Shown: piece by piece, positions 8,704 to 63,151 of the stretch
Layout: the number at the start of each line of letters is the position of its first letter
Numbering within the stretch: the stretch's first letter is position 1
From: Kiritimatiellia bacterium
GTDB lineage: Bacteria; Verrucomicrobiota; Kiritimatiellia; JAQICX01
Direction: 5' to 3'
Length of the DNA stretch: 64,000 bases
Assembly (NCBI GenBank): GCA_027858345.1
Contig: JAQICX010000182.1
Coordinates: 273-64,272 of the forward strand
Translations under genes and position numbers: made by a program
Notes under the pieces: model-generated
What the model was told of the DNA's origin: nothing
The model's input: the letters and a program-made list of their open reading frames with translations, nothing else
Databases searched by the model: none

Positions 8704-8714
8704 AATGCAGCACT

Positions 8715-9722: not shown

Positions 9723-9735
9723 AATAAATCCTACC

Positions 9736-22672: not shown

Positions 22673-22765
22673 TTGGACATTCCCTGTTGGATGTTGGATA
22701 TTCAATTTGTATATATTAAGTTTTCATCTTTTTAATATAATTTTAAAAGGGCCCTATAATCCATT

Positions 22766-24949: not shown

Positions 24950-26314
24950 TCAATGCTCTAGAATTTTTCCTGTGGATGCATTGAGGTTTTCTATTGCAAG
25001 AATTCTAGACAATCGTTCTCTTGCCAAAGCTGACTCTGCTGCAACAGCGTCTGTTTGCACTTGATTCAACCGAGTCACAGAAACAAGACTGGCGTTATAC
25101 TCTTCCGTGACAACATTCTCTATCTCATCTGCCAACCTATATATTTCATCACTCTTCTGCAACGACAAATTCTGAATTTCAAGATTATCACTTGCTACTC
25201 TGACATCTGCAACAACATCAATCTGAGTTTTTCTGTACAAATCAGAAGCAGCTGAAGCATCTGCTTTTGTTGCTCGAACTTTCCCGTGTCTCATACCACC
25301 ATCAAAAAGATCCCATGATGCCACCACACCAACAAATGCTTCTGTATTTTCATCTTTGTTTAGGGCGTCAGTATCATCAACACCATTATATCCATAACGA
25401 CCTGTTGCAACTACAGTAGGCATATAACTACCTTTTTCTGCAGATACAGCTGCTTCAGCTTGATCCAATTCAAGCTCTTTCTGCAAAAGATCAGGACGAT
25501 GATCCACCGCATATAATATTTCTTTATCAAAATCCACTAAAAATTCTTTATACTCCTGCTCAAGATTTGAAACTGATTGAACATCGTTTGTAACAGTTCC
25601 ATCGTCAACCCCCATGAGTCTAGCCAAAGCAATTCTGGCTTGACGTTTAGACAATTCTGCAGCCAGTGCCTGGTTTTCAGAAGCAATTTTACGCATTTTA
25701 AAATTCATCACATCAGATCTTGATGCGGCACCTGCAAGATTTCTATCGCGAGTTTCTTTATAAAGCACCTCGTTCAACTTTGCAGTTTCAATTGCAATTC
25801 TCTGTTGTTCTCCGGCAAACAATACAGCCAAGTATGCTTGAGAAACTCCTTGAAGAAGAAGTCGCTGTGCATCAAGAGTAGAGTTTTCGCTTATTTCTTC
25901 TCCATATTTCGCAGCCATTATCCTATATTTACGGGATAAGCCATCAAATAGCAGCCATGAAACATCGACTCCTGCCTTATAATTGTCGTGAGAGCCTAAA
26001 GCTCCTTGGGAGCCGGGCACTTCTTCCATTCTGTAGGCTGAGCCATAGGCACTAACGGTAGGTAACCAAGCAGATTTTGCCTGTTGAGCAATCGCAGATG
26101 CAGCCTCAATACGTGTCATTGCTGCTTGCAGTCCAGGATTTCCGGACAAGGCAATTTCTTTTGCCTGTTTCAGTGTGAGAAGTCCATTAACAACCTCCCC
26201 TTTTTCTACAAAACTATCAGGTATACTTGCTGAGTCTTGAGCCGAAAGATTACTCACTGTCATAGGCAATGACAACCCAATTAAAATTATTATTATAGAT
26301 ATTTTATCTTTCAT
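24950..26314 (-). CDS. Outer-membrane efflux factor (TolC/OprM family) with its own signal peptide, currently in frame with the upstream RND gene
   Basis: C-terminal 454 aa of the 1476-aa ORF; begins MKDKISIIIILIGLSLPMTVSNLSAQ (signal peptide) and shows OMF coiled-coil/barrel repeats (…LFDGLSRKYRIMAAKY…, …LFDGGMRHGKVRATKADASAASDLY…). Confidence 0.75.
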   Translation of the reverse strand: MKDKISIIIILIGLSLPMTVSNLSAQDSASIPDSFVEKGEVVNGLLTLKQAKEIALSGNPGLQAAMTRIEAASAIAQQAKSAWLPTVSAYGSAYRMEEVPGSQGALGSHDNYKAGVDVSWLLFDGLSRKYRIMAAKYGEEISENSTLDAQRLLLQGVSQAYLAVLFAGEQQRIAIETAKLNEVLYKETRDRNLAGAASRSDVMNFKMRKIASENQALAAELSKRQARIALARLMGVDDGTVTNDVQSVSNLEQEYKEFLVDFDKEILYAVDHRPDLLQKELELDQAEAAVSAEKGSYMPTVVATGRYGYNGVDDTDALNKDENTEAFVGVVASWDLFDGGMRHGKVRATKADASAASDLYRKTQIDVVADVRVASDNLEIQNLSLQKSDEIYRLADEIENVVTEEYNASLVSVTRLNQVQTDAVAAESALARERLSRILAIENLNASTGKILEH

Positions 26315-29300
26315 AATTTTCTTTTTTCCTCTTCGTGTTCCAAAATCATAAAGTATAGGGACAACAAACAGTGTCAATATACCCGAAATCAAAATGCCAC
26401 CAGCGGAAGCAATACCAACACCATTTCTGGCTTCAGCGCCTATTCCTTGAGCCAAGCCCATTGGCAGCATGCCAAAGAAACCGGCAAATGTAATCATAAT
26501 AATTGGTCTCATCTGATCTCCAGCAGCAGTAATCATTGCTTTATGTACAGGCATTCCTTCTCTAAGATGTACATTGAGTTGTTCCATAATCAAAATTGCA
26601 TTGTTCACCACAATCCCAATAAGCATAACTATGCCCATAATCACAAACACAGATATACTCTCATTCATCAATAATAACGCCCAGAACACACCAATCAATC
26701 CAAGTGGAAGTGTAACTAAAATTAATGCTGGTTGTTTCCACGACTCCATAATCGCAGCCAGTGTCAAAATAACCAAAATGATAGCTAACAAACCTGCTTC
26801 ACCAAGACTTGCCTGGCTCTCTGCCATGTTTTCTGCATCGCCAGAAAAAATAATTTCATACCCAGGTGGTAAAAGCTGCTCTTTGTCAACATATGAAGCA
26901 ATAACCCCAATAGCTATTCCAAGAGGAAAATCAGGATTCAAATTACTTGTTAATTTTGTGACTCGCCTTTTGTCTCTACGAAGAATCTGCACAGGAGTGT
27001 TGACTTCCTCAAAATTCACAAACGATTCAACCGAAACTGGTTTGCCAGGAAGTCCCGGAACAGAGAATGATTTAACTTGATCTTTGCCTTGTATTTCTTC
27101 ATATTTAACAACAATATCATAATTTCTGTCACCTTGTTTAAATGTGCCAATCTCAATACCTTCAAGATTACCTCTCAATGACATTCCAAATGTAGTTGCA
27201 GAAATACCAAGATCACTGAAAATTGCTCTCTTAGGAAACATTTTGAGCTTATTCTTGCCCAGACGTACTGATGTGTCAACGTCGCTAAAGCCTGGATAAT
27301 TTTCACAATACTGCTTAATATTTAAAGATAAAGCATTAAGAACATCCAACTCATCACCAACAATATAAGCCTCAACAGGTGTGCTGATGCCTCCAATTAA
27401 CGATGGGATAAACGCCCCGGTTAAACAATCGGTTATACCCGTCAATCTGTTTCGAACAATCTCAAGCAAATCATAAATAGTTGCATCTCGTTCATCCCTT
27501 TCCAAAAATTTCAATTGAACTTGCCCAAGATATACACCTTCCGATGCCTGACCGGCAATACCTTGAATTTTGCCAACAGTCACTAGACTACTTGTAAGTC
27601 CTGGCAAATCATCAAACAGTTTTGCAATTTCCAGAACACGTCCAACGCTGTTGTCCAATGAATATGAGGTAGGAAACTCTAAACGAACTGTAATTGAACC
27701 CTTATCCAGATCAGGAAAGAAACTGCCACCAACAGCCTTTGCCGACTTCAAGGCAGACATAAACATTAAAACTACCGCAATAATAAAAAGTATTGCAAAA
27801 ATCTTTCTTTTTTCAAACAAACGCAATAGTTTTCTATATGCGCTGATAACCTTGTCAAGTCCGGCATTGAACTTGTTTTCAAAAAATGCAAGAACACCCT
27901 TGTTTTTTCGACTTGTTAAAAGCTTTGCACATAACATTGGTGTTAATGTGAAAGATATAAAGAGTGATACAAGAGTCATAATAAGCATTGTCAAAACCAA
28001 TGGTTTAAGAAACATTGCAACCATACCGCCCATCATAGCAATAGGAAGAAGCACAACACAATTTGTTCCAGCTGACGCTAAAACAGGAAGCCAGGAATCT
28101 GAGGCTCCAAGTCTCGCTGCCTCTTTTGGATCTTTACCCTGCGAAATGTGCTTGCTTATTGCCTCCATAACCACAATGGAATTGGTTACAAGAATACCCA
28201 CACTCATACCAATTGATATCAATGTTGACATATTCAATGTATAATTCATTAGCCCCATAAAGAAAAGACCAATAACAATCGTAAGTGGCATTGTTATACA
28301 TACAACAAACGTTGTTCTAATATTATAAAGAAACAAAAATAGAATCAATCCCGTGAGCACAACACCCATTGCAACATTTTCCCAAGCACTATCTACAGAT
28401 GCCTTGATAAACTTTCCCTCATCATTAACCCACTTAAGATCCATTCCTCCTGGTAATTGCTCCTTCAATTTTGAAAACTCTGACCGAACAGAATCAACAA
28501 CTTCAACAGCATTTGCATCCGCAAGCTTAACAATTTCAATTGCTATGCAAGATGCACCATCGAGAAAAGCCTTTTGCCTAATCTCTTCAGTTGTCATGAC
28601 AGCCTTGCCAACATCTTTCAAATATACCCGCTTACCATCAACATTTGCAACTTCCAGTTCATTAAAGTCTACAACTTCCAAAGGGTCAGCATCAAATTCA
28701 ACAGTATATTCAAAACCATTATCTTTGACTCTACCTGATGGAATCAAACCAATTGCTGAATTAATATTTTGAGCTACTATTCCAGAGGTCAGCCCTCTTG
28801 CAGCAAGTTTATCTCTATCTATAAGAATATGAACTTCACGCTTAGCACCACCAATCAGCGTACACTCTGCAACACCTGCAATGGACGACAACCGGTCTTT
28901 TAAAGTATTATCAGCATAATCATACAGATCGGCAATGGGCAAATCACCAGTCAATGCAAGCTTCACAACAGGAACGGCATTAACATCAAATTTTTCCACG
29001 ATAGGATCTTCAACCCCTGCAGGGAAATCACCAGCAATTAAACCAATTTTTTCTCGCACATCCATCGCTGCAATATCAATATCTGTACCATATTCAAACT
29101 CAAGAAACGTAAAGCACACATTTTCCATAGCTGTTGACTCAACATGTTTAATGCCATTGAGAGTCATCACTTTATCTTCAATTCTCTTTGCAACATCAGT
29201 CTCTATCTGTTCAGGACTTGCTCCGGGAAAAATTGTTTTAATCGTAATGATCGGTGCATCGATACTCGGAAGCATCTCCAAACCCATCTTACGATAAGTA

Positions 29301-29380
29301 TTGAACCCTAGTAAAACCAGGGCAATCAACAAACAAGACATCGCAATAGGACGCCTAATTGACGCATTTGATAAAAACAT
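26315..29380 (-). CDS. RND multidrug efflux transporter (AcrB/HAE1 family); lacks a stop codon and reads through an A6 tract into the OMF gene
   Basis: N-terminal 1022 aa of the 1476-aa ORF; 12-TM RND architecture, MFLSNASIRRPIAMSCLLIALVLLGF..., ends ...FGTRRGKKKI then MKDK. Confidence 0.85.
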
Positions 29381-31384: not shown

Positions 31385-31495
31385 CTAGTCCGCAAAAGCT
31401 CCTCCCGCTTTTAGGGGAGGTGGCGATCCAGCTACTACTTTGCTTTAAGTCAAAAGCAAAGTAGTAGCTGGAGAGACGGAGGGGTACTGCCTTCA
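31385..31495. repeat. Stacked-hairpin repeat family 2 copy containing a perfect 19-bp-stem hairpin CCAGCTACTACTTTGCTTT-aagtca-AAAGCAAAGTAGTAGCTGG
   Basis: Read directly at 31412-31456; flanked by CCTCCCgcttttaGGGGAGG and GGAGGGGTACTGCC. Confidence 0.8.
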
Positions 31496-31835
31496 TCACT
31501 GAATATTCGAAGTCGGACACTTTCTTGTATTCTTACTATTAAAGCTTTCTTACAAAAACCAAAGATACATTTTTCTGACTTGCGGGTCATTTTCGCAAAC
31601 ACACGGTCATAATGCAAGAACTTTTTTTCAAAAAATTAAGAAAAACTGCTTTTTTGTCGATTATCTTGTTAAATACTAGGATGCTAGTTGATTTTCTTAC
31701 GTCAATATCTATTTATCACAGGCAAACACGGACTAACACACACAAGCGAATATCCAGCTTGGGTGTCGAGACATGGTCTCGCAAAGTGAAGGCTGAAAAC
31801 CTCGAGAAACTTGCAAATAAATTTGAGTCCGCCAA

Positions 31836-31960
31836 AGCTCCTCCCCGGCTAGCTTGCTAGTCCCGCAAAGCGGGAGAAGGTGGCAATCCCGCTACTACTT
31901 TGCCTTTTTTAAAAGCAAAGTGGAAGCGGGAGAGACGGAGGGGTATTCATTTTATTGGAT
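31836..31960. repeat. Stacked-hairpin repeat family 2 copy (extended CTCCTCCCCGGCTAGCTTGCTAGTCCCGCAAAGCGGGAGAAGG + degenerate long hairpin + GGAGGGGTA)
   Basis: Near-identical 5' half to 21084-21130 and to the reverse complement of 50690-50745. Confidence 0.8.
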
Positions 31961-32336: not shown

Positions 32337-34604
32337 ATGAAAACTATAAGTGAAGAAATATGGGAGCGGAAGTATCGATACGATGGACTAGGAGATGCGC
32401 CAGAAGACACATGTTACGAAGATACATGGAAAAGAATTGCCGGAGCGGCAGCCTCAAAGGAGAAAGATTCAAAGTTTTGGGAAGATGAATTTTATAGTAT
32501 TTTAAAAAATTTCAGATTTTTACCAGCTGGTAGAATTATTGCAAATGCAGGAACAATGCGTGAAGAAGTTACCATGTTCAACTGCTATGTAATGAATAGT
32601 ATCGAGGACTCAATCGAAGGCATTTTTGACACAGTTAAAGACTCTGCTCTAACACAAAAACAGGGTGGTGGTGTTGGATTTGACTTCTCAACAATTCGTC
32701 CAAAAGGTTCAATGATAAAAGGATGTGAATCGAATGCATCTGGTCCAATCAGCTTTATGCAGGTTCTTGACTCCACATGTCGCACAATCATGAGCGCAGG
32801 GCAGCGTCGTGGAGCTCAAATGGGTGTGATGCGATGCGACCATCCTGATATTGAAGAATTTATTACTGCAAAACGTAATAATGATCAATTAAAGATGTTC
32901 AACCTTTCAGTGGGTATTACCGATGGCTTTATGCAGGCAGTGAAAGATGATGCAGACTGGGATCTTGTATTTAAAGGCAAAGTGCATAAAACAATAAAAG
33001 CATCTGAGCTTTGGGACTCTATTATGAGTTCAACATATGACTACGCTGAACCTGGATTCATTCTGATTGACAAGATTAATAAAATGAACAATCTGTCATA
33101 TTGTGAAGAAATTTGTGCAACCAACCCTTGTGGAGAGCAGCCATTGCCTCCCTTTGGAGCTTGTCTACTTGGTTCACTAAACCTAACTCGTTTTGTTAAC
33201 CACCCGTTTACAGAAAAGGCTAATGTAGATTTCAAAGAATTGGCCAAAGTTACAAAGGTTGCAGTCAGACTTCTTGACAACGTGATTGACCTCAGCAACT
33301 ACCCGCTTGACCAACAACGTAAAGAAGCTGAAGCAAAAAGAAGAATGGGCATTGGCATCACTGGTCTTGCAGATCTGTTTATATTCATGCAACTTCGATA
33401 TGGTACGAATGAATCTGCTGACTTAGCAGAAAAGATTATGCAGACAATTACATACTCTGCATATGAAGCAAGCGTAGAACTTGGAAAAGAAAAGGGCGTA
33501 TTCAAAAAATTTGATGCCAAGAAATATTGCCAGGGTGCATTTATCAAATCACTACCTGCTGACTTGCAGAAGAAAATTGAAGAAAATGGTTTAAGAAATT
33601 CACATTTAACATCTGTTGCTCCAACAGGAACAATTAGTCTATTTGCTGAAAATGTTTCAAGTGGTCTGGAACCTGTATTTGCATATATGTATACAAGAAA
33701 AGTTCGTAACACAGACGAAAATGATGTTACAGAAATGCGTGTCACTGATTATGCATTCAAAACATACAGCGAATTTATTCACAAACCGAACCTTGAAGTT
33801 AGTGAGTTGCCGGAATACTTTGTATCATCATCTGACATTGCTCCGTCAGAACATATTAAAATTCAGGCATCTCTTCAAAAGTATGTTGATAGTTCAATAT
33901 CAAAAACAATCAATATACCTGCTGACTACCCATTTGAAGACTTTAAACATGTTTATATTGAAGCTTACGAAAAAGGTTTAAAGGGCTGTACAACATTCAG
34001 ACCTTCTGATTACATCACGGGTGTTCTTGTTAAGGACGAAGACAAGAAAAAAGAAGAAGAGACAGTTAAGCCAAAAACTTTTGTTCCAAGACCTCAAATT
34101 TTAGAAGGTACAACCTACAAAATCAAAACACCATTGTCAACTGATGCTCTATACATCACAATTAACGATTTGGTTAAGGAAAATGGAACTAGGCGCCCGT
34201 ACGAATTGTTTATTAACACAAAGAACCTACAACACTTTAGCTGGATTGTTGCGATGACGCGTCTAATATCTGCGGTCTTCAGACACGATGCAGCACCAAT
34301 ATTCCTTGTTCAGGAATTGAAAAGCATCTATGATCCAAATGGTGGATATTTTGTAGATGGCGGCTATGTTCCTTCTCTTGCAGCCGATATTGGTCGTATA
34401 ATTGAAAAACATCTGACCAAGATTGGCATTATTGCCGAGACAAACAAAAAAACAATGAGCAAACCTGCTAAAGAGGCAAAAAAAGGTGCTCAACAACTAA
34501 ACAACGACAATTTTATGTTCTGCCCAAGCTGCAACGAAAAAGCATTGGTTTCACAAGAAAACTGTCTAAAGTGCCTAAGCTGTAACTACAGCAAGTGCGG
34601 ATAA
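32337..34604 (+). CDS. nrdJ: Ribonucleotide reductase class II, adenosylcobalamin-dependent, with C-terminal Cys4 zinc ribbon
   Basis: 755 aa; …NPCGEQPLPPFGACLLGSLNL…, …SSISKTINIP…, C-terminal FCPSCNEKALVSQENCLKCLSCNY. Confidence 0.9.
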   Translation: MKTISEEIWERKYRYDGLGDAPEDTCYEDTWKRIAGAAASKEKDSKFWEDEFYSILKNFRFLPAGRIIANAGTMREEVTMFNCYVMNSIEDSIEGIFDTVKDSALTQKQGGGVGFDFSTIRPKGSMIKGCESNASGPISFMQVLDSTCRTIMSAGQRRGAQMGVMRCDHPDIEEFITAKRNNDQLKMFNLSVGITDGFMQAVKDDADWDLVFKGKVHKTIKASELWDSIMSSTYDYAEPGFILIDKINKMNNLSYCEEICATNPCGEQPLPPFGACLLGSLNLTRFVNHPFTEKANVDFKELAKVTKVAVRLLDNVIDLSNYPLDQQRKEAEAKRRMGIGITGLADLFIFMQLRYGTNESADLAEKIMQTITYSAYEASVELGKEKGVFKKFDAKKYCQGAFIKSLPADLQKKIEENGLRNSHLTSVAPTGTISLFAENVSSGLEPVFAYMYTRKVRNTDENDVTEMRVTDYAFKTYSEFIHKPNLEVSELPEYFVSSSDIAPSEHIKIQASLQKYVDSSISKTINIPADYPFEDFKHVYIEAYEKGLKGCTTFRPSDYITGVLVKDEDKKKEEETVKPKTFVPRPQILEGTTYKIKTPLSTDALYITINDLVKENGTRRPYELFINTKNLQHFSWIVAMTRLISAVFRHDAAPIFLVQELKSIYDPNGGYFVDGGYVPSLAADIGRIIEKHLTKIGIIAETNKKTMSKPAKEAKKGAQQLNNDNFMFCPSCNEKALVSQENCLKCLSCNYSKCG

Positions 34605-34741: not shown

Positions 34742-37459
34742 ATGATATCTAAAAAAACAACAATCTTTTTTGCACTTTGTATGATAATTTTAGGTATTAC
34801 TCAAGCGTTTAGCAGTAGCAAAGAAAAGACCGTCCAATTAACTGCTGAAGAAAGATCATGGCTTGAAGCCCATCCTGTCATTAGACTGGCACCCGACCCT
34901 GAATTTCAACCAATTGAGTTTTTCGATGAGGAAGGCAAATATTCAGGAATTGGCGCAGACTACGCAAAATTAATTTCTGAAAAACTTGGTATAAAGTTTG
35001 AAATTGTTCAATGTGCCAATTGGAACGAAGTCGTTGAAAAAGCAAAAAACCGTAAAATTGATGTTTTAAACGCTGTCGTTAAAACTCCTCAACGTGAAAA
35101 ATATTTAATTTTTCCACCTCCTTACTTAAAAACTTCATCTGTCATAATAGTTCGAAAAGGTGTCTCCGATAAATTAACTTTAGAAATGCTGGAAGACATG
35201 CATGTTGTTATGGTATCAGAATATGGATATGTGGATCTAATTCGTAACAAACACCCCGAAATCAAAATTGATTTAGTCATCAGCCAAAAAACCGCTCTCC
35301 GAAAAGTGTCATTTGGTATGGCCGATGCATTTGTTGGCGACTTGTTAACTGCCAGCTTCTATATTGAACAAGAGGGCATAACAAACCTAAAATTAGGGAA
35401 GGAACTACAACCACCAAATACATCTGGATTTGCAGTGCGTTCTGATTGGCCGGTATTAAGCCAAATCCTTGAAAAAGGTGTTAATATGCTAACCGAGGAT
35501 GAAAAAAATAGTATTTATTCAAAATGGATACATCTGCAAACAGCCCCGGGATTAACGACCCAAGAGGTTAAAAAGTTAAGTACAATCATACTAACATGTG
35601 TATTCCTGATTATATTGGGGTTTTTACTTTGGAATCGTTCTCTAAACCATAACGTACAACAGCGTACAAAAGACCTTAAAAAAGAGGTGGATGAAAGAAA
35701 AAAAGCAGAATATGCTTTAAAAGAAGCCCATTCTGAATTAGAGAAAAGAGTGGAAAGACGAACAAAAGACCTTAGTGAAGAAATTAAAAATAGAGAAATT
35801 CTAGAAGATGAACTTGCAAAAGAAAAAACATTTTTAGAAGTTGTCCTTCAGAACATTCAGGAGGGAGTTATAGTATGCGATAAAAATGGTATTTTAACAT
35901 TGTTCAATAGGGCTTCACGCGAAATACACGGCCTACCAGAATTGTCAGTTACACCAGACCAGTGGGCAGACCATTATCTTGCTGATGGTATTACTAAAAT
36001 GCACAAGAGTGACATCCCATTATTTAGGGCTCTACAAGGAGAAAGTATCAAAAACTTTGAAATAACCGTAATTCCTAAATCAAAACCCCCAGCTTCATAT
36101 ATAAGTTCCAGTCAACCATTGAGGGACGAAAACAATGTCATAATAGGAGCTGTAGCAACTATGCATGATATTACAGAAGAAAAAAGAGCTGAAATCATAC
36201 TACGAGATGCCCATATTGAATTAGAGAAAAAAGTAAAAGAACGTACAAACGAACTGCAACTATCTCTCAAAAAACTGGAAGAAGAGACTGCGGAAAGAAA
36301 AAAGATGGAAATGGCTCTGATGCAATCTCACAAAATGGAGGCCATCGGAACTCTTGCAGGAGGCATTGCCCATGATTTCAACAACATTTTAGCTGCTATT
36401 ATTGGCTATGCCGATATGGCAATTGACTACATCCCTGAAAATAGTCCAGCAAAACATCAGATAGAACAGGTGTTAAAAGCAGGAGATCGAGCAAAAGACC
36501 TCATTCAACATATATTAACATTTAGTCGCAACGAATCTCAAATCCGAGTTCCTACGGAAATCTATGCTACGGTTAAAGAGGCCACAAAGTTTTTACGCGC
36601 TTCAACCCCGACTACAATTGAGATAAAGGAAAACGTTGATGAAAAAAGTGGAACCATTCTGGCAGATGAGACTCAGATAAATCAAGTCGTTGTTAATCTT
36701 TGCACCAATGCTGCACACGCTATGGAAGAAGATGGAGGCGTCCTTGAAATCTCATTGGCTCCATATGAGCACTCTAAAGACGGAGAATACAAAAACATTA
36801 ATTTAAAACAAGGCTCTTACATTATGCTTTCAGTCAAAGATAATGGACCCGGTGTTGACCCGGAAATCATTGATAAAATTTTTGATCCATACTTTACCAC
36901 AAAAGGTATTGGCAAAGGTTCAGGCATGGGACTAGCAGTTGTACAAGGAATCGTAAAGAATCATGATGGCTTCATAACCGTAGACAGCTCGTCCAGCGGA
37001 ACAACATTCACGGCATTCTTTCCGAAAATTCAAAAAAGTAGTTCAAAAAAGAAAAAAACGAATGAATTAATTCCAACAGGAACAGAAAAGATACTAATTG
37101 TTGATGATGAAGAGATAATAGCCAGAATGACAAAAAGAATTGTAGAAAGCTTGGGCTACAAAGCAACATCAACAACAAACAGCTTAGAAGCATTAACAAT
37201 ATTCAAAGCCAATCCCGATGATTTCGATCTGGTGATTAGCGATCAGACAATGCCTGATTTAACAGGAGACAAGCTATCCAAAAAAATATTGAACATCAGA
37301 AAAGATATACCTATCATTATATGCTCTGGCTATAACTCCAAAATAGATGAGTTAAGAAACGATGCCATTGGAATTGCCAAGTTTATAATGAAACCCGTTC
37401 GCAAACAGGAACTCGCCAAAACAATCCGAGAAGTTCTGGATAATCGACAACCGAAGTAA
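34742..37459 (+). CDS. Hybrid sensor histidine kinase: signal peptide + periplasmic solute-binding (SBP_bac_3-like) domain + TM + coiled coil/PAS + HisKA/HATPase + C-terminal receiver
   Basis: 905 aa; H-box …GGIAHDFNNILAAIIGYADMA…, N/G boxes, receiver with …ILIVDDEE…DLVISDQTMPDLTG…. Confidence 0.85.
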   Translation: MISKKTTIFFALCMIILGITQAFSSSKEKTVQLTAEERSWLEAHPVIRLAPDPEFQPIEFFDEEGKYSGIGADYAKLISEKLGIKFEIVQCANWNEVVEKAKNRKIDVLNAVVKTPQREKYLIFPPPYLKTSSVIIVRKGVSDKLTLEMLEDMHVVMVSEYGYVDLIRNKHPEIKIDLVISQKTALRKVSFGMADAFVGDLLTASFYIEQEGITNLKLGKELQPPNTSGFAVRSDWPVLSQILEKGVNMLTEDEKNSIYSKWIHLQTAPGLTTQEVKKLSTIILTCVFLIILGFLLWNRSLNHNVQQRTKDLKKEVDERKKAEYALKEAHSELEKRVERRTKDLSEEIKNREILEDELAKEKTFLEVVLQNIQEGVIVCDKNGILTLFNRASREIHGLPELSVTPDQWADHYLADGITKMHKSDIPLFRALQGESIKNFEITVIPKSKPPASYISSSQPLRDENNVIIGAVATMHDITEEKRAEIILRDAHIELEKKVKERTNELQLSLKKLEEETAERKKMEMALMQSHKMEAIGTLAGGIAHDFNNILAAIIGYADMAIDYIPENSPAKHQIEQVLKAGDRAKDLIQHILTFSRNESQIRVPTEIYATVKEATKFLRASTPTTIEIKENVDEKSGTILADETQINQVVVNLCTNAAHAMEEDGGVLEISLAPYEHSKDGEYKNINLKQGSYIMLSVKDNGPGVDPEIIDKIFDPYFTTKGIGKGSGMGLAVVQGIVKNHDGFITVDSSSSGTTFTAFFPKIQKSSSKKKKTNELIPTGTEKILIVDDEEIIARMTKRIVESLGYKATSTTNSLEALTIFKANPDDFDLVISDQTMPDLTGDKLSKKILNIRKDIPIIICSGYNSKIDELRNDAIGIAKFIMKPVRKQELAKTIREVLDNRQPK

Positions 37460-39689: not shown

Positions 39690-40946
39690 TTACGTGGTAT
39701 ACTCAGCATTAATCTTCACATACTCATATGAACAATCACAAGTATACAGATTATACTCACCATCACTAATGTTCAAATCAATAGTGATTACAAACTCATC
39801 CTGCCTCATTATTGCCTCAAGCTCTGCAAGCTTACCCGCAACAACCATTCCACCCTTAACGCACTCAATCGAGCCATAGAAGATGTCTACCTTTTCTTCA
39901 ACCAACTCAGCACCGGAATACCCAGCTGCATCAATAATTCGTCCCCAGTTCGGATCGTTACCAAACCATGAAGTCTTAACTAACAACGAGTTGCCGATCG
40001 CCCGTGCGACCAACCCTGCATCAGCATTGCTCTCAGCGCCCTTAACAACAATCTCAACAAACTTTGTTACGCCTTCACCATCCCGCACAAGTTCCTTTGC
40101 AAGATACAAAGCCGTTTCATGTATGGCATCAACAAAAATCTGCCAATCCTTATGCTGAAGATTTAATTCCTTATTACCCGCAAGTCCATTTGCCATAATA
40201 AAAAACGAATCATTACAACTCTGATCTCCATCAACACTAATCCTGTTAAATGTCTTTGCAGTCACATCTTCTATGCAGTCCTGCAGAGCAGCTCTGTCAA
40301 CATTTGCATCTGTTGTGATATAAGCAAGCATGGTTGCCATATTTGGTTCAATCATACCAACACCCTTGACCATAGCACCAATCTTAACACGCTTGCCATC
40401 AATCACAACTGTTTTTGTAAACTCTTTTGGACGAGTGTCAGTTGTCATAATAGCCTTTGCAGCAATTGCACCGCAATCCTCACACTCGAAGATCTCTCGG
40501 GTAATGCTCTTAATGCCTCTTTCAACCTTGTCCATTGGCAAAGGAACACCAATAACACCAGTTGAACAAACATATACAGAAGTATCCGGAACTCTTAAAC
40601 ACTCCGCTGTAAACTCTGCCATTCTTTTTGCATCGCTATTCCCCTGTTCTCCATTACACGCATTTGCATTCTTGCTGTTAATGATTATAGCTCTTGCTGT
40701 TTCACCACGTTCAAGTAAAGACATACAATATTTTACTGGAGCACCCTTTATTTTGTTTGTCGTAAAAACAGCCGCAATACTTGCTTCAACTTCAGAATAT
40801 ATCAATGCCATATCTAAAGCATCATTTTTTATTCCTGCATTTATTCCTAATGCCCCAAAACCTCGAGGTGTACTTATTCCACTCATGGTAAATTCTCTTC
40901 CGTTCATAATTAAAATTGCACAGAGTTGAACTATATAACAATACAA
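39690..40946 (-). CDS. argJ: Bifunctional glutamate N-acetyltransferase / amino-acid acetyltransferase ArgJ
   Basis: 418 aa; …ATMLAYITTDANV… autoproteolysis Thr region; start likely at internal MSGISTPRGF (40886). Confidence 0.85.
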   Translation of the reverse strand: MYCYIVQLCAILIMNGREFTMSGISTPRGFGALGINAGIKNDALDMALIYSEVEASIAAVFTTNKIKGAPVKYCMSLLERGETARAIIINSKNANACNGEQGNSDAKRMAEFTAECLRVPDTSVYVCSTGVIGVPLPMDKVERGIKSITREIFECEDCGAIAAKAIMTTDTRPKEFTKTVVIDGKRVKIGAMVKGVGMIEPNMATMLAYITTDANVDRAALQDCIEDVTAKTFNRISVDGDQSCNDSFFIMANGLAGNKELNLQHKDWQIFVDAIHETALYLAKELVRDGEGVTKFVEIVVKGAESNADAGLVARAIGNSLLVKTSWFGNDPNWGRIIDAAGYSGAELVEEKVDIFYGSIECVKGGMVVAGKLAELEAIMRQDEFVITIDLNISDGEYNLYTCDCSYEYVKINAEYTT

Positions 40947-41272
40947 CAGGCAAATGCAACCTTAAAAATCATAGAAAATATACTTTCCTCACTTTTTTGG
41001 TTACCCCACCATTGTCACTCCCGTTTTTTCAAGACAACGGTTATTTGTATGCCGGGAGCGACACTCGAGCCTGCGAGAGAGGCTGCTTTCCCTAATGAGA
41101 AAAGTAGAAAGGAGCAATGAGCGTAGCGAATGGCCTACATTCGTCCTCGTTGTCACAACTATGTTCAACCTTAAAATTCAGGGAAAACAACCTTAATTTT
41201 TAGTTTAGGATCAGAAACATGTCTTTCAATTAGTAAAATTAGCAAAAAACACATTGTTTTATCACCAAACTG

Positions 41273-41505
41273 ATGATAAATATGAAAAATAATTTTTTAA
41301 AGGCGGGGTCATCAGTCTTCGCCCAGCTATTAACAATATAATAAATCTTGTTAGTAGCTGGGCTACGCCAGACGCAGCGTACTTTGAAGGTAAACCCTAC
41401 AAAATACTTGCAAATCAAGGATTTAGCTTTGGTTGCAGCATCCGTAACTGTAGGGTCGGGGTCCGTGACCCCGCCAAAAAGGGTGTTCAACCGAAAAATC
41501 AAGGA
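41273..41505 (+). ncRNA. Copy 1 of a paired ~200-bp structured repeat (candidate small RNA gene or MITE) with TGATAAAT promoter-like box, nested hairpins and 10-bp terminal inverted repeat GGCGGGGTCA / TGACCCCGCC
   Basis: First 102 nt (41301-41402) identical to 59161-59262; 3' hairpin GGGGTC-cgt-GACCCC vs GGGGTG-ctt-CACCCC in copy 2 (compensatory). Overlapping ORFs 41239..41502(-) and 41348..41536(+) are judged spurious. Confidence 0.45.
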
Positions 41506-41961
41506 TACTCACCCTAGTTTTTCGGTTGGAGTCTGAAACATGCGTTTCAGCTAATAAAATAAGCTATTGATTTTTCCTTTTATGCCTTTTTGGGTGATAA
41601 ATTAATGTTTTTTATAAGGGGCTGTTAGCAAGTGTCTTATGGTAAAAATACGCTTTGCGCATTGCATCCCGCTTTGCGGAACCAGCAAAGCTGGCATAAA
41701 TCATAATAGGCGAAGCGACTTCCTAACCTCGTAGAGAACTATTTACTATTTACTATCAACTATAAACTATTTGAAAGAATGGCTTTCCAAAATTTCAATA
41801 AAAAAATGAATCAACATAAAAATTTAGGAAAAACAACCTCTTTTTACAAAATTACTTGATATATATATACACCTTTGATAAAATTAAGGGTAAATTTAAA
41901 ACAAATAAGATTTTTGATTTTACATTTAAAGCAAATCTCTTAAAATAGAAAGGCTAAAACA

Positions 41962-43618: not shown

Positions 43619-43787
43619 CACGGCTACAGAGTGAACTTTGTAAATTGACGGTTAAACTGTAGTTTCACTCTGTAGCCGACCTCAGCAGAGGTCGGGAACA
43701 CGGTTGAATCGAGGAATTAACGCTTAGCAACTTTTAGTCGAGAGTCCTGAGTCGTGAGTCAAATTGACATATAACATAACAGTTATG
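43619..43787. repeat. ~165-bp composite hairpin repeat (family 1 long form): 15-bp perfect inverted repeat CGGCTACAGAGTGAA/TTCACTCTGTAGCCG, CCGACCTC-agca-GAGGTCGG hairpin, GGGAA, then GAATTAACGCTTAGCAACTTTTAGTCGAGAGTCCTGAGTCGTGAGTCAAATTGACATATAACATA
   Basis: About 88% identical to 50808-50957. Confidence 0.8.
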
Positions 43788-44225: not shown

Positions 44226-44685
44226 AGAAGGGTAACGTAACGATCTTTCCCGCCTTACGGGACTAGCAGAGCCAGCACGCAAGTGTGAAGGTTTTCATTT
44301 GGTTTGCAACAAGATCCATCATCTTAGCTTATTTTTAATACGACCACAATGTGGAAATCCACCCTTTTCCGTACAGGTTAAACGTCCGCAGGGTAAGAGG
44401 CTTTAGTTTATCTAAAGCAACAGAGCATAGCGAAGTGACAATTTGGCAGTTCTATACCATTTTTATTTGGTCGACAACAGGTAGTCCTTTTACTTTCAAA
44501 AAGTGTAAAACTATCACAGGACAAGACGAGTTCTGCGTCCTAGTTTGTCATTGGCGTAATTGTACTGCGACATGGTTGCATTGTCAAATTGATTTTTGAC
44601 TTCTGTGACTAAATCTCGGTTTGGCTCGTAACTTCTCGTTACTTCAAAGTTGTTCGGGGCAGCTTCACTCCTTTTTCCCACTTTC

Positions 44686-44710
44686 CCTTTTAAGTTTTAA
44701 CTTTCATCAC
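44686..44710 (+). repeat. Left copy of 23-25-bp direct repeat CCTTT(T/G)AAGTTTTAACTTTCATC bounding the DUF2442/DUF4160 cassette
   Basis: Matches 45888-45910 at 22/23; partner motif GAGTTCTGCGTCC.A.TTTGTCATT at 44530 and 44720. Confidence 0.7.
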
Positions 44711-44775
44711 GTCTATCCGTTGAGTTCTGCGTCCGATTTTGTCATTTATTGGGCTTAAACACAAGAGACATCCAT

Positions 44776-45596: not shown

Positions 45597-45887
45597 ATAA
45601 CAAACTCCCTATTAATTTATATGCCTTTACTATAAAACAAAACATATAATTTGTCAACAAATTCAGACAATTCTAATCAATTAATTTCTATATAGTCTCG
45701 AGGCTAGACTGCTTAACAGTGGTGTTTCATCGATTACGTTCAACACAGTTCCCTATGTACGCTTACTCTATATTGTTCAATATATAATCTCCGCTATAGA
45801 GCCAACGCTCGGTATGAGCTGATGGCGAATCTTTACTCAGAAAGCATGAAACAATGAGCTTCGCTCTACCTGTATTTTTAACTTTTA

Positions 45888-50639: not shown

Positions 50640-50745
50640 GGTTTACAAGGAAGTACCCCTCCCACCTCGCAAGCGAGGTGACCTCCTCCCGCCTTGCGGG
50701 ACTAGCAAAGCCAGCCGGGGAGGAGCTTTGGCGGACTAAGGTTGA
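50640..50745. repeat. Inverted-orientation copy of stacked-hairpin repeat family 2
   Basis: Reverse complement reads ttagtccgccaaagCTCCTCCCCGGCTGGCTTTGCTAGTCCCGCAAGGCGGGAGGAGGTCACCTCGCTTGCGAGGTGGGAGGGGTACTTCC. Confidence 0.8.
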
Positions 50746-50807
50746 TTTGCAGTTTCCCGCGCCGAGGCGACGAGGCTATCCCGCCTTACGGGACTAGCAA
50801 AGCTAGC

Positions 50808-50957
50808 TGTGAACTTTGCAGGTTGACGGTTAAACTGTAGTTTCACCCTGTAGCCGAGTACCGTGGGCTCGGGAAAAAAGTTGAATCAGGGAATTAACGC
50901 TTAGCAACTTTTAGTCGTGAGTCCTGAGTCGTGAGTCACATTGACATATAACATAGG
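50808..50957. repeat. Second copy of the ~150-bp composite hairpin repeat (family 1 long form)
   Basis: About 88% identical to 43631-43787; hairpin stem here CCGAG…CTCGG instead of CCGACCTC…GAGGTCGG. Confidence 0.8.
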
Positions 50958-55803: not shown

Positions 55804-57645
55804 ATGGCAGGTATAACAGAAGAGTGTATTGCTGAAATACGCAACAGAGCAGACATTGTTGATGTCATAGGCTCATATATTCAGCTCTCAAAAGCAGGCT
55901 CTACATACAAGGCCTGTTGTCCTTTTCATAAAGAAAAAACTCCATCTTTCAATGTTAATCCAAACATGCAGATCTTTAAATGTTTTGGCTGTGGAAAAGC
56001 GGGTAATGTTTTCTCGTTTATTATGGAATATGAGGGACTCGATTTCCTAAGCACAGTAAAAATGCTTGCCGATAAAACAGGTGTTGAGATTAAATACAAC
56101 AAAGGATACAGACCCAAAGGCGAGGGCGAAAAAAGCGATCTATATCAAGTAAATAAAAAAGTTGCCGAGTTTTACTATTCATGTTTGAGCTCTGACAAAG
56201 GGAAACCTGCCGTAGACTACCTAAAAAGCAGGGAAATCACAGGCGAAATGGCAAAGGAATTTACCATTGGCTATGCACCAGAAGGTTGGGACACACTAAT
56301 TAATTGGGCAAAATCACAAAAAATTACTGAACAAGATCTGGATAAATTAGGGCTGCTGTCACAATCTGAAAAGTCAGACCATCAATATGACAGATTCAGA
56401 AACAGACTCATGTTCACCATACACGATGATCAGGGACGTGTTGTGGGATTTAGCGGCAGAATTCTTGAGGGATCAAAAGAAAAGGCAAAATACGTCAACA
56501 CACCTCAAACCCCAATATTTTACAAAAGCAAACTTCTATATGGACTACACAAAGCCAGGAGAGCTATCTTAGACAAACAGGATGCAATCATTTGCGAGGG
56601 GCAAATTGATGTTATTCGCTGTCATAGCGCAGGATTCCAAAATGCAATTGCATCACAAGGAACAGCGTTCACAGAAGAGCATGCAGACAAACTTAAAAGA
56701 TATACAGATGCGGTAACAATTGTATTTGACTCAGATAGTGCCGGCAAACAGGCGACCATAAAGACAGCCAGAATATTTATAAAGGCTGGCATGGCTGTCA
56801 GAGCAGCCATTGTTCCAGAGGGCGAAGATCCAGACTCCTATATCCTAAAAAATGGTCAAGAAGGCTTCCAAAAGCTGCTTGATGAAGCAATGTCAATTGT
56901 CAGCTTTCAATATAACTACTTCAGAACCATTGAAGATATAACAACAGATGTTGGAATGATGCGAGCCTCAAAACAGATTATGGAAACCATAAACATCAGC
57001 ACAAGTGAAATACAAAAAGCAAAAATGAGTCTGGAGGCTGCCGAACTATTGAACATACCACTAAGTGCTCTGCAAAGTGACCTCAAGTTTAGGGTTCAAG
57101 GAACATATACTCCACCTCCAAAAAAACAGGCAAAGAGAGAAACAAGAATCTTAAATCCTCAAACGCTTCAACCTCTTCCATATGACGAAAAATCAATATG
57201 TGAAATCATTGCAAGCAATTTTGACAATGCAGAAGTTCATGCACTGGTGCGTGACTACCTCCCAAATGCAATAATATTATCCCCTGTAACCAAAAAATTC
57301 ATCGATGCGGCACTATGGGCTCATGAAAGTGATGAAGACATTCAGGATCTTTTAGCCGAAGATGCAGACAACCAGCAACTAATGACACATTTTTCTGCAA
57401 CAATGTTTATGGAACCAAACAAGTTTGCAAACACAGAAGCAACTGCTGTCAGTGCAACACAACTGTTAATCATTGCAATCTGGAAAAAGTATTTTCAGCA
57501 TCAGTATGCAACCCTGCAAAACAATTACAGACCTGAAGATGATAAAAAACGCTCCCAATTGACGTATGATAAAAACAATATGACATCATGGGAAACCGCC
57601 GAACCAATAATAAAAATTGCCTTCGAAAAAATCGCACTCGATTGA
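55804..57645 (+). CDS. dnaG: DNA primase
   Basis: 613 aa; zinc-binding CPFHKEKTPSFNVNPNMQIFKCFGCGKAG, TOPRIM …EGQIDVI…. Confidence 0.9.
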   Translation: MAGITEECIAEIRNRADIVDVIGSYIQLSKAGSTYKACCPFHKEKTPSFNVNPNMQIFKCFGCGKAGNVFSFIMEYEGLDFLSTVKMLADKTGVEIKYNKGYRPKGEGEKSDLYQVNKKVAEFYYSCLSSDKGKPAVDYLKSREITGEMAKEFTIGYAPEGWDTLINWAKSQKITEQDLDKLGLLSQSEKSDHQYDRFRNRLMFTIHDDQGRVVGFSGRILEGSKEKAKYVNTPQTPIFYKSKLLYGLHKARRAILDKQDAIICEGQIDVIRCHSAGFQNAIASQGTAFTEEHADKLKRYTDAVTIVFDSDSAGKQATIKTARIFIKAGMAVRAAIVPEGEDPDSYILKNGQEGFQKLLDEAMSIVSFQYNYFRTIEDITTDVGMMRASKQIMETINISTSEIQKAKMSLEAAELLNIPLSALQSDLKFRVQGTYTPPPKKQAKRETRILNPQTLQPLPYDEKSICEIIASNFDNAEVHALVRDYLPNAIILSPVTKKFIDAALWAHESDEDIQDLLAEDADNQQLMTHFSATMFMEPNKFANTEATAVSATQLLIIAIWKKYFQHQYATLQNNYRPEDDKKRSQLTYDKNNMTSWETAEPIIKIAFEKIALD

Positions 57646-58782: not shown

Positions 58783-59133
58783 TTTAATTCCTTAATAAAT
58801 TATTTGCACCTCTGGCACATCAAACATAAACCGTAAATCTTCTTTTTTGTCATAAAAGGTGTATAAAATAATAACTGATAACGAATTATGCAAGCAAATT
58901 CTTGTTTTTTTTATAAAAAAACATTGATTTAGAAAAAACAAAGATATATAATTTATGTATTGTATACTTCTGTGACAGGTGCAAGACAAGAGGTTTTAAT
59001 AAAAGCTGACGACCTCCCTAAAACTACATCCGACCGAGAATTTGCTAAAGACCTTCGCTTTCGGTGGAGGATGCGAACGTGGATTTGGGTCAACAAAAAC
59101 AGGGAGTGAGATTTCATTTTTTATTTCTTTGAG

Positions 59134-59398
59134 TGATAAATCTGAAATATATGTTTTCAAGGCGGGGTCATCAGTCTTCGCCCAGCTATTAACAATATAA
59201 TAAATCTTGTTAGTAGCTGGGCTACGCCAGACGCAGCGTACTTTGAAGGTAAACCCTACAAACCACCTGCGAAGCAACCTTTTAGCTTTAATTTCAGCAT
59301 CCGTAACTTTCTTGTCACGCCGTAGTCTGGAACAGCGAAGGAGGAAGGGTCGGGGTGCTTCACCCCGCCGAAAAAGGTATTCAACCGAAAAATCAAGG
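59134..59398 (+). ncRNA. Copy 2 of the paired structured repeat (candidate sRNA gene/MITE), with ~35-nt internal insertion relative to copy 1
   Basis: 59161-59262 identical to 41301-41402; conserved upstream TGATAAAT (59134-59141) and downstream GGTATTCAACCGAAAAATCAAGGA; overlapping ORFs 58996..59277(-) and 59207..59428(+) judged spurious. Confidence 0.45.
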
Positions 59399-59414
59399 AA
59401 AGAATCAATTGATG

Positions 59415-60750: not shown

Positions 60751-61527
60751 ATGACAAATATTCATCCAACAGCCATAGTAGAAGATACTACAAAAATTGG
60801 AGAAGGTACAACTATCGGACCATATGCAGTTATTGGACCAGAAGTTGAACTTGGGAAAAATTGTAAAATTCATAGCCAATGCAGCATTGTTGGTAAGACA
60901 AAGCTTGGAGACGGTTGCGAAGTTTTTCCATTTGCAAGTGTTGGTGAGAAATCACAAGATTTGAAATATAAAGAAGGCAACAAGACATATGTCGAAATTG
61001 GCAACAACACTGTTATCAGGGAGAGTGCGACAATTCACTCCGGCACAGCTGATGGTGAAGTTACAAAAATTGGTTCCAACTGTCTGTTAATGGCTTACAC
61101 TCATGTTGCACATGGATGTGTTGTGGGTAACCGTGTAATAATGTCTAACAACGCAGCTCTTGCAGGAGAAGCAACGGTTGATGATGGTGCTATTCTTGGT
61201 GGGTTCGCCGCTGTAAAGCAATTTGGTCGCATTGGTAAAATGGCTTTTGTAACAGGTATGTCTGCTATTAATCAGGACATTGCACCTTTTATGATTGGCT
61301 CAGGTAATTTTGCAAGAACTATTGGTGTTAATTCCGTTGGACTTCAAAGAGCTGGATTTGACACAGCCAAAAGATTACTTATCAAAAAGGTGTATAAAAT
61401 CATCTTCAGAGAAGAATTATCAACAAGTCAAGCCTTAGAGAAGATAAAGGCTGAGATTGAGATAACTGATGAGGTTAAAACTATTATTGATTTTATCGAG
61501 GCATCTAAATTTGGAATTGCCAAATAA
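60751..61527 (+). CDS. lpxA: Acyl-ACP--UDP-N-acetylglucosamine O-acyltransferase
   Basis: 258 aa; left-handed beta-helix hexapeptide repeats, MTNIHPTAIVEDTTKIGEGTTIGPYAVIG…. Confidence 0.85.
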   Translation: MTNIHPTAIVEDTTKIGEGTTIGPYAVIGPEVELGKNCKIHSQCSIVGKTKLGDGCEVFPFASVGEKSQDLKYKEGNKTYVEIGNNTVIRESATIHSGTADGEVTKIGSNCLLMAYTHVAHGCVVGNRVIMSNNAALAGEATVDDGAILGGFAAVKQFGRIGKMAFVTGMSAINQDIAPFMIGSGNFARTIGVNSVGLQRAGFDTAKRLLIKKVYKIIFREELSTSQALEKIKAEIEITDEVKTIIDFIEASKFGIAK

Positions 61528-61548: not shown

Positions 61549-61575
61549 GCTAAACTCAGGTTTAGCTTTTTTTTT
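61549..61575 (+). terminator. Rho-independent terminator after lpxA
   Basis: GCTAAAC-tcag-GTTTAGC followed by T9. Confidence 0.85.
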
Positions 61576-61620
61576 GAGTTTAACTTTGTTTTTTTTGTTA
61601 AATGACTATATTTTTTTAGC

Positions 61621-61924
61621 CATCCTCCTTCGCAGACTCTGACTCCGGAGGACAGTCCACACGGGTTAACACAGATTTCATTTGTATAACCCCTTTATAA
61701 ACAGCACTTTACGTTTTTTCGGGATTTAACAACGCAATACAACTACATGACATACTTTCTTAGATATCATCTTCTGGGTGATATTGTTATAAAATAATTT
61801 TATGCAGGCTTAAAGTATTAAACAATTTGCTTGTGGATTTAATTATCAACATATTACATGAATATATTTACCCGTGAAAATCTGTCGGGTCTGTCCACCG
61901 GAGTCAGAGTCTGCGAAGAGGATG
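61621..61924. repeat. ~305-bp element bounded by 34-35-bp imperfect inverted repeats (CATCCTCCTTCGCAGACTCTGACTCCGGAGGACAG / CTGTCCACCGGAGTCAGAGTCTGCGAAGAGGATG); candidate invertible switch or MITE
   Basis: IR arms 61621-61655 and 61891-61924 (1 mismatch + 1 indel); 235-bp AT-rich non-coding core; lies between lpxA terminator and the 62094 gene. Confidence 0.6.
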
Positions 61925-62093
61925 ACGAAGAGAAAAAGGAACCTGCAACCGAAAAATTAAGGTAGTTTAGGTTTTGTGCAAGATTTTTCTTTTATTCTCG
62001 TTGATATTATATTACTATCTGCCCTTGTGTTATCATGTTAACAACATATTTAAAAGCTCTGAAACCTATTTGAGGAAAGCATTAACATAACAG

Positions 62094-63151
62094 ATGAAAA
62101 GATGTTTTATAATTTTCGCATTTCTATTTATTTTAGTTCCATATACCTACTGTAGTTTCTTTGAGTCTATAAAAAAGAGTATTGCAGAGAATACAGAAGC
62201 ACAAAAAAGATTGAACTTAAAAACATCAAAGCGGGGAAAAAGGGAAGCAAACCTGTTAATTCTTCCTATGCAACAAATTGGCTTGACAATTTTCATGACA
62301 GTCTATTCCTGACCATTCAGGGACAAATTACCAGAGCAGACACAATGTTTGTGCAGGATAAAGGTTCGGTTACTACACCACATTCTAGATTTGAACTTTC
62401 ACTGTATACCGAACTTGAACAAGGGAAGGGTAGTGCTAGCTTCGCTATTGACCCAAAATTTGACATTGATTTAGCTGTTCCAAATTTAGAAAGAACGCTT
62501 AAAATTTATGTTAATAACACACCTGTGGGTTCTCTGCCAGGTATTGACCCTGTTGATGAAGACAGAACTTTACATCTCGGTGTTAAATCTACTTTGGAAA
62601 AACCAGAGAGTTGGTTGCCAAAGTTTAGTACCAGCATTGGTGTTGATTGGAACTGGCCACCTGATCCATATGTTGAGCTTAATATCAGCAAATATCTGAA
62701 CTTCGGAAACCTTAGGCTTTATCCAAAGCAGTCATTTTGGTTAAACACAACAGATAGACTAAGTGAACAATCAACATTAAGAACGGAATATTGGCTTTCA
62801 AAGAATATGTTGACAACCCTATGGAGTTCCATAAAATACACACAAGACGATGGCTATTTCAATTGGGAACAATCACAATCTGTCATATATCGTTTAAACG
62901 ACTATGGTTTGGATATGGATACACATAAAATGCATTTTTGCAATTTAAAGTTTTCAATATTTGGGGACAATACGGTCGTTAAAACATATCGTTTGACAAT
63001 GCAGTATAAGTTTCCTATTTACAAAGACTGGATATTTCTGGAACTATCTCCTGAACTAAAATTTGAAAAAGAGACAGACTGGGAAACTATCAGAGTCTTT
63101 AGAGTTGGAATAAGTGCCTTGTTTTGGGGTCTTTACAATATGCCAAAGTAA
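62094..63151 (+). pseudogene. Beta-barrel-like outer-membrane protein gene split by a frameshift (signal peptide in frame 0, 62094-62312; mature domain in frame -1 through 63151); pseudogene, sequencing error or slippage-mediated phase variation
   Basis: Frame 0: MKRCFIIFAFLFILVPYTYCSFFESIKK…; frame -1 is open from 62165 and reads …ATNWLDNFHDSLFLTIQGQITRADTMFVQDKGS… to …FWGLYNMPK; overlap zone contains A6 (62171-62176), A6 (62203-62208) and G4A5G3 (62234-62245) tracts. Confidence 0.55.

Follow-up and report, generated by a model that had tools for sequence, protein, structure and literature searches.

The inverted repeat between lpxA and an envelope-protein gene

The window, that is, the whole stretch of 64,000 nucleotides (64 kb) analyzed here, is ordinary chromosome, carrying rpoD, a secretin/PilM cluster, arg and trp genes, asd, pyrF, fabZ, and lpxA. 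At 7687–12056, by PilM and the secretin, two genes are labeled as Amuc_1100 and Amuc_1102 families in the precomputed annotation of an identical contig, a setting like the Akkermansia pilus-like cluster; a direct Pfam scan at E ≤ 1e-5 was empty for both. The lpxA gene, with matches to the Pfam families Hexapep/Acetyltransf_11, is separated by a spacer of 566 bp from a gene starting at 62094 that encodes a conserved envelope protein, and this spacer holds the inverted-repeat element, whose arms and core together span about 305 bp. The features of the locus are as follows:

60751–61527: lpxA
61549–61576, plus strand: intrinsic terminator of lpxA, stem-loop GCTAAACTCAGGTTTAGC followed by a T-run, found by a terminator scan directly upstream of the element
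61621–61655, no strand: left arm of the inverted repeat, 35 nt, ~60% G+C
61656–61890, no strand: AT-rich core, 235 bp, without credible open reading frame (ORF) or Rfam match
61891–61924, no strand: right arm of the inverted repeat, 34 nt
61932–61962, plus strand: 3′ module GAAAAAGGAACCTGCAACCGAAAAATTAAGG, 31 nt, starting 7 nt past the right arm
61989–62019, plus strand: promoter-like block CTTTTATT..TTGATA..ATTATATTA, downstream of the element and conserved in four related species
62094–63151, plus strand: conserved gene, interrupted by a −1 frameshift, of a 352-aa envelope-protein family whose members have a signal peptide and are predicted to be all-beta in the body

The left arm (CATCCTCCTTCGCAGACTCTGACTCCGGAGGACAG) and the reverse complement of the right arm (CATCCTC-TTCGCAGACTCTGACTCCGGTGGACAG) align over 33 matches with one mismatch and one single-base indel, which bears out the arms, the 235-bp AT-rich core, and the coordinates given in the first-pass annotation. 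G+C content is ~60% in the arms and ~32–35% in the core. Inward of the arms, complementarity continues in a weaker, gapped form to ~61672 and ~61874 (61657–61672 against 61874–61889). Both arms share the exact 20-mer TTCGCAGACTCTGACTCCGG, which has no third site in the 64 kb and is absent from all of 100 dinucleotide-preserving shuffles; the pairing of the arms is far beyond chance. Among inverted repeats with arms at most 3 kb apart, it is the only long one of high identity in the window.

The element is non-coding. A credible ORF was looked for in the core and none was found, and the longest ORF touching the element, a read-out ORF, has 35 aa and matches nothing but itself. A phmmer search of 1.84 billion representative proteins with the 40-aa ORF that crosses the right arm returned only itself and one chance match in a repeat protein. 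The concatenated six-frame translation, used as a protein query, returned nothing and likewise missed a known 35-aa control ORF, which makes this query uninformative. Rfam gave nothing relevant, either for the whole window at gathering score or for the element at E values up to 10, where only chance-level matches overlapping its left edge were obtained; permissive E values applied to the 40.9–46.5 kb region likewise brought up nothing that bears on the element.

Folding of either strand yields a long hairpin with a z score of about −10.6 relative to shuffles, a value that simply restates the inverted repeat. It is very improbable that the element is a structured RNA, whether a leader that regulates in cis, a precursor of small RNAs, or a transcript processed by RNase III, with a long hairpin of ~305 nt. 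The fold score of the two strands is what speaks for such an RNA; against it, no Rfam family was hit even at the most permissive threshold, no homologs occur in relatives and hence there is no covariation to show, and the AT-rich interior is poorly structured. Moreover, given that the element lies between an intrinsic terminator and the conserved promoter block of the downstream gene, it is probably little transcribed.

The downstream gene has full-length homologs of 344–357 aa. In the window it is split into 62094–62312 and 62345–63151 by one missing A at 62203–62208, where a run of six A residues is found and seven would restore the frame. Since the frameshift is identical in every assembly of the organism covering the site (100% identity over the stretch), it is taken as a genuine mutation that may have left the gene a pseudogene; a 268-aa product of it is on record at NCBI under a Kiritimatiellae bacterium metagenome-assembled genome. 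No Pfam domain was detected in the protein family by a profile scan, and the AlphaFold model of the family, with a pLDDT of 38, was too poor for a fold search, which was dropped. The signal peptide and the predicted all-beta body make an outer-membrane protein plausible. Thus, of the frameshifted outer-membrane-protein gene initially described, the frameshift stands, while the outer-membrane identity is plausible but unproven, with no Pfam domain and a pLDDT of 38. The order lpxA, this gene, and a Na+/H+ antiporter gene is kept in relatives, its second half on further contigs too, which indicates a conserved core gene rather than a member of a variable surface-antigen family.

Orthologous spacers and independent assemblies

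Orthologous loci of relatives were reached via exact-protein look-ups. The relatives compared share 64–71% amino acid identity with the product of the 62094 gene and are too distant for a base-exact empty site. Their spacers between lpxA and the envelope-protein gene measure 306 bp (L007–L009) and 378 bp (L014), compared with 566 bp here, and neither the arms nor the core has any similarity in the spacers of the four related species. Since it lacks a counterpart in the orthologous spacers, the element is, as judged from these alignments, a lineage-specific addition of ~300 bp and not ancestral.

What the four species do share with the window is the promoter-like block, with the pattern CTTTTATT-N5/6-(TTGACA-like)-ATTATAnTA, which lies between the right arm and the start codon of the 62094 gene. 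Because this block is conserved outside the element, the element is not needed for the promoter of the gene. The element had been regarded as sitting in the right place to control the 62094 gene; it does lie directly upstream, and the conserved promoter-like block at 61989–62019, downstream of the element, favors a repeat insertion over a switch.

The element is reproduced in independent assemblies. A JGI contig (L003/L016, sample 3300051640) carries it in full, base for base; a second contig (L005) carries the right arm and a third (L004) the left arm and core. At 61849–61851, two contigs from a single sample series stop or show a gap. These breaks are read as low coverage and not as two orientations, and as weak evidence in any case, given that they fall 40 nt inside the core instead of at an arm and that the contigs are short and broken elsewhere. 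A chimeric fold-back join made during assembly was also considered, and two related scaffolds do gap or end near the right arm; with the entire element identical in an independent contig and its halves reproduced in two others, the chance of such an artifact is close to negligible. The same JGI contig shows a scaffolding oddity at its positions ~2049–2131 (window ~61476–61481), where a 10-N gap and 74 nt of unrelated sequence lie inside the 3′ end of lpxA and make the lpxA product 268 aa; this is absent from the window.

Further copies of the arms were searched for at several scales. The 64-kb window yielded no second copy, and neither did blastn of the right-side flank that other assemblies add to it; these flanks amount to ~6 kb in all, and blastn covered the right side and not the left flank (L017). 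The arm 20-mer had no true match in 185,579 species-representative genomes, nor in 241 million metagenome records and 2.9 million viral contigs. None of these collections includes the genome of the organism itself, as is evident from the window locus not being returned. The matches obtained were coincidences of 20–22 nt in coding genes (Abditibacteriia, Gastranaerophilales). Similarly, blastn of the element against plasmids and phages gave no match. No target-site duplication was detected at either plausible boundary, the flanks (left ...TATATTTTTTTAG(C), right (A)CGAAGAGAAAAAGG) having no direct repeat in common. The first-pass annotation had proposed a search for other copies of the inverted repeat, with many copies bearing target-site duplications as the mark of a miniature inverted-repeat transposable element (MITE). 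What emerged is no further copy in the window or the collections apart from one solitary, degenerate arm-like segment at 59320–59348, and, for the MITE, no duplication and a single copy in the window.

Neighboring repeat families and their 3′ module

Self-comparison of the window revealed at least four other intergenic repeat families that are GC-rich and hairpin-forming. The repeats referred to below are located as follows (L014 is the related species mentioned above; the L015 copy lies about 3 kb beyond the window):

59130–59399 and 41271–41505: Family A, ~230–270 nt, GC-rich, 90% identical over the main 180-nt match
59313–59398, plus strand: arm-like segment, GC hairpin, and 3′ module at the 3′ end of the Family A copy 59130–59399
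50809–50955 and 43631–43778: Family B, 87% identical, each just upstream of a plus-strand gene
50647–50759, 21078–21179, 31803–31881, 22628–22681, and L015 7986–8058: Family C, GC-rich hairpin clusters
41488–41504, 41512–41528 (minus strand), 59382–59398, 61946–61962, and L014 1395–1411: sites of the 17-nt core CAACCGAAAAATYAAGG of the 3′ module

Family A is strongly structured, with an 8-bp closing stem (GGCGGGGT/ACCCCGCC) and a 16-bp hairpin. It has no Rfam match at permissive E values, and a spurious ORF within it returned nothing as a protein query. Metagenome contigs assembled for this organism from other samples break within these repeats; some begin in Family A, which suggests that the family is multi-copy in the genome. 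Family B contains a hairpin, an A-run, and ...AGTCGTGAGTCACATTGACATATAACATA with a TTGACA box, and on this basis may carry a promoter. The hairpins of Family C (CACCTCGC..GCGAGGTG, CCCGC..GCGGG, and CCTCC..GGAGG) resemble REP/BIME mosaics, and the relatives L014 and L007 carry a related motif, CCCCTCCG..ACCTCC. In addition, a non-coding element at 41010–41181 is ~76% identical to L014 1237–1411 and 1178–1203, located upstream of a ferredoxin/panD pair here and of pyrF in L014; its conservation, by alignment, appears to exceed what is expected of a neutral spacer at such divergence.

Two further structures lie in repeat-bearing parts of the window. At 31427–31472, a perfect 20-bp palindrome (TCCAGCTACTACTTTGCTTT/AAAGCAAAGTAGTAGCTGGA) with a 6-nt loop has a 90% copy of its arm at 31887–31907, all within a 1.1-kb intergenic region filled with repeats. 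On the minus strand at 45737–45849, a region of small genes, Rfam reports a hit to group II intron D1-D4-6 that stays below threshold (29.7 bits, where the gathering score is 49; E = 1e-5), and the adjoining segment 45828–45906 is repeated at 44672–44723 and beyond the window.

The module that follows the right arm connects the element with these repeats. Its form, GAAAAAGG..CAACCGAAAAATTAAGG, is a motif common to the 3′ ends of two repeat families of the window. It also ends the Family A copies (59368–59398 and 41474–41504), as well as an unrelated structured element upstream of pyrF in L014 (~1385–1411). Of the 17-nt core CAACCGAAAAATYAAGG, the window has four copies where 0.02 would be expected, and L014 has one, upstream of pyrF. 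It usually comes after GAAAAAGG and a hairpin, sequence similarity stops directly past its ...AAGG, and at 41488–41528 two copies are arranged tail to tail. The core is kept in the L014 species, whose orthologous proteins are only ~66% identical, and the grammar of a hairpin followed by the 3′ motif is conserved between species with proteins ~66–70% identical. The module at 61932–61962 therefore probably belongs to the inserted element, which with it measures ~340 bp. The module was also considered as a promoter and rejected, with nothing conserved downstream at −10 spacing and a distance to promoter-like sequences picked by eye that is anywhere between 12 and 38 nt.

Across the window, the right arm with its flank is locally matched best by the 3′ end of Family A, which scores 36 compared with 25.8 ± 2.5 (maximum 34) for shuffles. 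Next to this match lies a 29-nt arm-like segment identical to the arm at 22 of 29 positions, which taken alone is a weak match (E ~0.5) but is collinear with the match in the 3′ motif and directly upstream of that motif. This segment corresponds to a 35-nt indel, present in the copy 59130–59399 and missing from the copy 41271–41505. A similarity between the 5′ flank of the element and the 5′ leader of Family A was dropped as not significant.

These resemblances bear on an account that is doubtful yet deserves weight, namely that the inverted repeat is a one-off local inverted duplication, neither mobile nor a switch, in which the arm was copied 235 bp away. The right arm and the 3′ module would then be resident repeat DNA like that at 59313–59398, and the copy would stem from template switching or break repair. 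The lack of a target-site duplication and of any other copy in the window or the collections would agree with this, as would the likeness of the right arm and its flank to a repeat end already present, a likeness that the left flank does not have (its similarity to Family A being not significant). The near identity of the arms suggests a recent event. On the other hand, no source of the 235-bp core is detectable in the window or in relatives, palindromes made by template switching mostly have short spacers, and the complementarity weakens toward the inside, a pattern also seen in terminal inverted repeats of transposable elements.

Insertion or invertible switch

The geometry of the locus fits an inverton: near-identical inverted repeats enclose an AT-rich core a few hundred bp long, and a gene for a probable surface protein follows directly. 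In such a switch, a recombinase encoded elsewhere would flip the 235-bp core, re-orienting a promoter or a terminator-like barrier and making the envelope gene phase-variable. Two signals in the core are consistent with it: a match to the IHF consensus lies at 61844–61856 (one, against ~0.05 expected, an estimate from the 15 matches in the window), and a weak sigma-70-like site with 9 of 12 matching positions on the minus strand (61888–61861), the only promoter-like site in the core, would face the gene once the core is inverted. However, promoter-like sites are not enriched in the region (3 against 3.1 expected, a comparison to be read with the caution that the promoter rules of the host phylum may differ), and the conserved promoter block of the gene lies outside it.

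Signs of a second orientation were looked for in assemblies and in protein records. Two assemblies break near 61849–61851, as a mixture of orientations might cause, but the breaks are 40 nt inside the core and not at an arm boundary, in low-coverage contigs of one sample series. The assemblies spanning the element, namely the window and the JGI contig, have one orientation only; L004 has a gap and L005 is partial. From inverted configurations built for every possible crossover within the arms, nine ORFs unique to those configurations were predicted, none of which had an exact match in a collection of ~15 billion proteins, whereas the control, a 35-aa ORF of the present orientation, was recovered on 2 contigs; the power of this look-up is low.

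The statement that the window lacks a recombinase gene held for the 35 ORFs scanned with Pfam, which include lpxA, asd, the reconstructed 62094 gene, and the antiporter fragment; pyrF and fabZ were taken from precomputed annotation. Five ORFs of at least 150 aa were outside the scan (24950–29380, 32337–34604, 34742–37459, 39690–40946, and 55804–57645), and three further ones of at least 150 aa were left out as spurious because they overlap larger ORFs on the opposite strand. The genes annotated on ~4 kb beyond the right end of the window do not include a recombinase either.

Inverton repeats are usually ~10–30 bp long, an invertase is often encoded nearby, and a recognizable promoter lies inside. 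Like the element, the invertons of E. coli fimS, the Mpi-controlled promoters of Bacteroides, and Akkermansia group-138 have repeats flanking a segment of a few hundred bp upstream of a probable surface gene; they differ in that no invertase, second site, promoter signal, or second orientation was found here and the promoter block of the gene is outside the repeats (PMC11892184, PMC11602134). Invertons are common in Akkermansia, a relative within the PVC group, where one example has 17-bp repeats around 158 bp (PMC11892184). On the other hand, the invertons of one genome fall into groups with a common inverted-repeat motif, the median group having 9 members (PMC11892184), and the 64 kb show only one arm pair; furthermore, the 62094 gene is a conserved, single-copy, syntenic gene that is frameshifted here. 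Taken together, an active switch is unlikely at this locus.

A MITE-like foldback repeat insertion, non-coding, lineage-specific, and ~305 bp long, is the best explanation, to which a probability of roughly one half is given. It fits better because relatives lack the element in their orthologous spacers, because a conserved promoter-like block lies downstream of it, because the genome is crowded with other intergenic repeats, and because the right arm is followed, after 7 nt, by the 3′ motif common to those repeats. The element has terminal inverted repeats, small size, no coding capacity, and presence or absence at an orthologous site, as MITEs do. Nevertheless, the MITE label is unproven, with no target-site duplication, no second arm copy in the window or the collections, no transposase among the ORFs scanned in the window, and no known parent insertion sequence (IS) with matching ends. 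Of the two identities proposed in the first-pass annotation, inverton or MITE, the geometry agrees with what was described and the MITE-like insertion fits better, neither label being proven. The probability that remains after the readings given here belongs to explanations beyond them.

Under the preferred reading of a MITE-like insertion, the element would have inserted past the lpxA terminator and ahead of the promoter that the envelope-protein gene already had, arriving by transposition or a related insertion process with an enzyme supplied in trans from elsewhere in the genome, and would now be essentially passive DNA. Any read-through transcript would carry a 35-bp duplex, a potential target of RNase III, as in the Correia elements of Neisseria. 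The element would thereby join the GC-rich, hairpin-forming intergenic repeats of this genome, in which a hairpin is typically followed by GAAAAAGG..CAACCGAAAAATYAAGG; here, the arm pair with its 235-nt loop would take the place of the hairpin ahead of the 3′ motif.

Correia elements (CREE/NEMIS) may serve as the closest functional analogy, with no membership claimed and no likeness in sequence expected. They too are small, non-coding, bounded by terminal inverted repeats, and intergenic upstream of a gene (PMC2649163, PMC2229807, PMC10969869), and the likeness extends to an AT-rich interior with an IHF-consensus site, a possible long RNA duplex, and presence or absence between relatives. In contrast to Correia elements, which have 100–155 bp, 26-bp repeats, a TA target duplication, and hundreds of copies (PMC2649163, PMC2229807, PMC10969869), the element has ~305 bp, repeats of 34/35 bp, no target duplication, and one copy seen.

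The window also resembles genomes with REP, BIME, and REPIN sequences, mobilized by RAYT enzymes of the IS200-like Y1 type, in being full of GC-rich extragenic hairpin repeats, and the element resembles them in that its arms are two inverted copies of a GC-rich unit without target duplication. No target duplication is expected of Y1/HUH enzymes. A REP unit is an imperfect palindrome, and REPINs are ~100 bp long with short spacers. The arms were examined as REP-type hairpins and rejected: single arms are not hairpins, and their folding energies of −4.2 and −3.6 kcal/mol do not surpass those of shuffled sequences (z = −0.6 and +1.2). A further difference is that the window contains no RAYT gene. 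In a related species (L010), a Y1_Tnp gene adjoins the syntenic Na+/H+ antiporter gene. The ends of IS200/IS605 elements and of their derivatives without genes (PATEs) likewise consist of a subterminal hairpin, a short spacer, and a terminal motif against unrelated flank, and the order of hairpin, spacer, and motif recurs in both Family A copies, on the minus strand at 41512–41550, in the L014 element, and in the inverted-repeat element. The resemblance to IS200/IS605 is architectural only, since no TnpA or TnpB gene, defined left end, or conserved target motif was found.

From this recurrence, a broader and rather unlikely reading may be put forward, in which the inverted-repeat element, Family A, the 41010–41181/L014 element, and probably Family B would form one undescribed class of mobile elements in Kiritimatiellae. 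Its members would have a subterminal hairpin and the conserved 3′ terminus GAAAAAGG..CAACCGAAAAATYAAGG in common, differ in cargo, and insert without target duplication while pointing at the downstream gene, in the manner of HUH/Y1-type transposons or RNA-bearing relatives. The 35-bp arm pair would then be an oversized recognition hairpin instead of recombinase sites. Such a class is without a supporting enzyme or defined ends here.

No paper on inverted repeats in Kiritimatiellae was found in the literature. Should the element prove to flip, this group would have a first described case of a phase-variation switch, a modest extension of a well-known mechanism. If it is a MITE-like insertion, it is ordinary genome litter, of use mainly as a warning against taking an inverted repeat for an inverton on the strength of its place ahead of a surface gene, and as a marker of the repeat-rich, little-studied genomes of PVC bacteria. 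The part most worth specialist attention is the grammar of hairpin and 3′ motif in the neighboring repeats.

A second inverted-repeat-bounded example in the clade is found in L007–L009, where a tandem duplication with a unit of ~310 nt lies upstream of pyrF (~938–1560) and the units have their own inverted repeat, GGGACGGATGGGAC ... CATCCGTCCCAT, around an AT-rich core.
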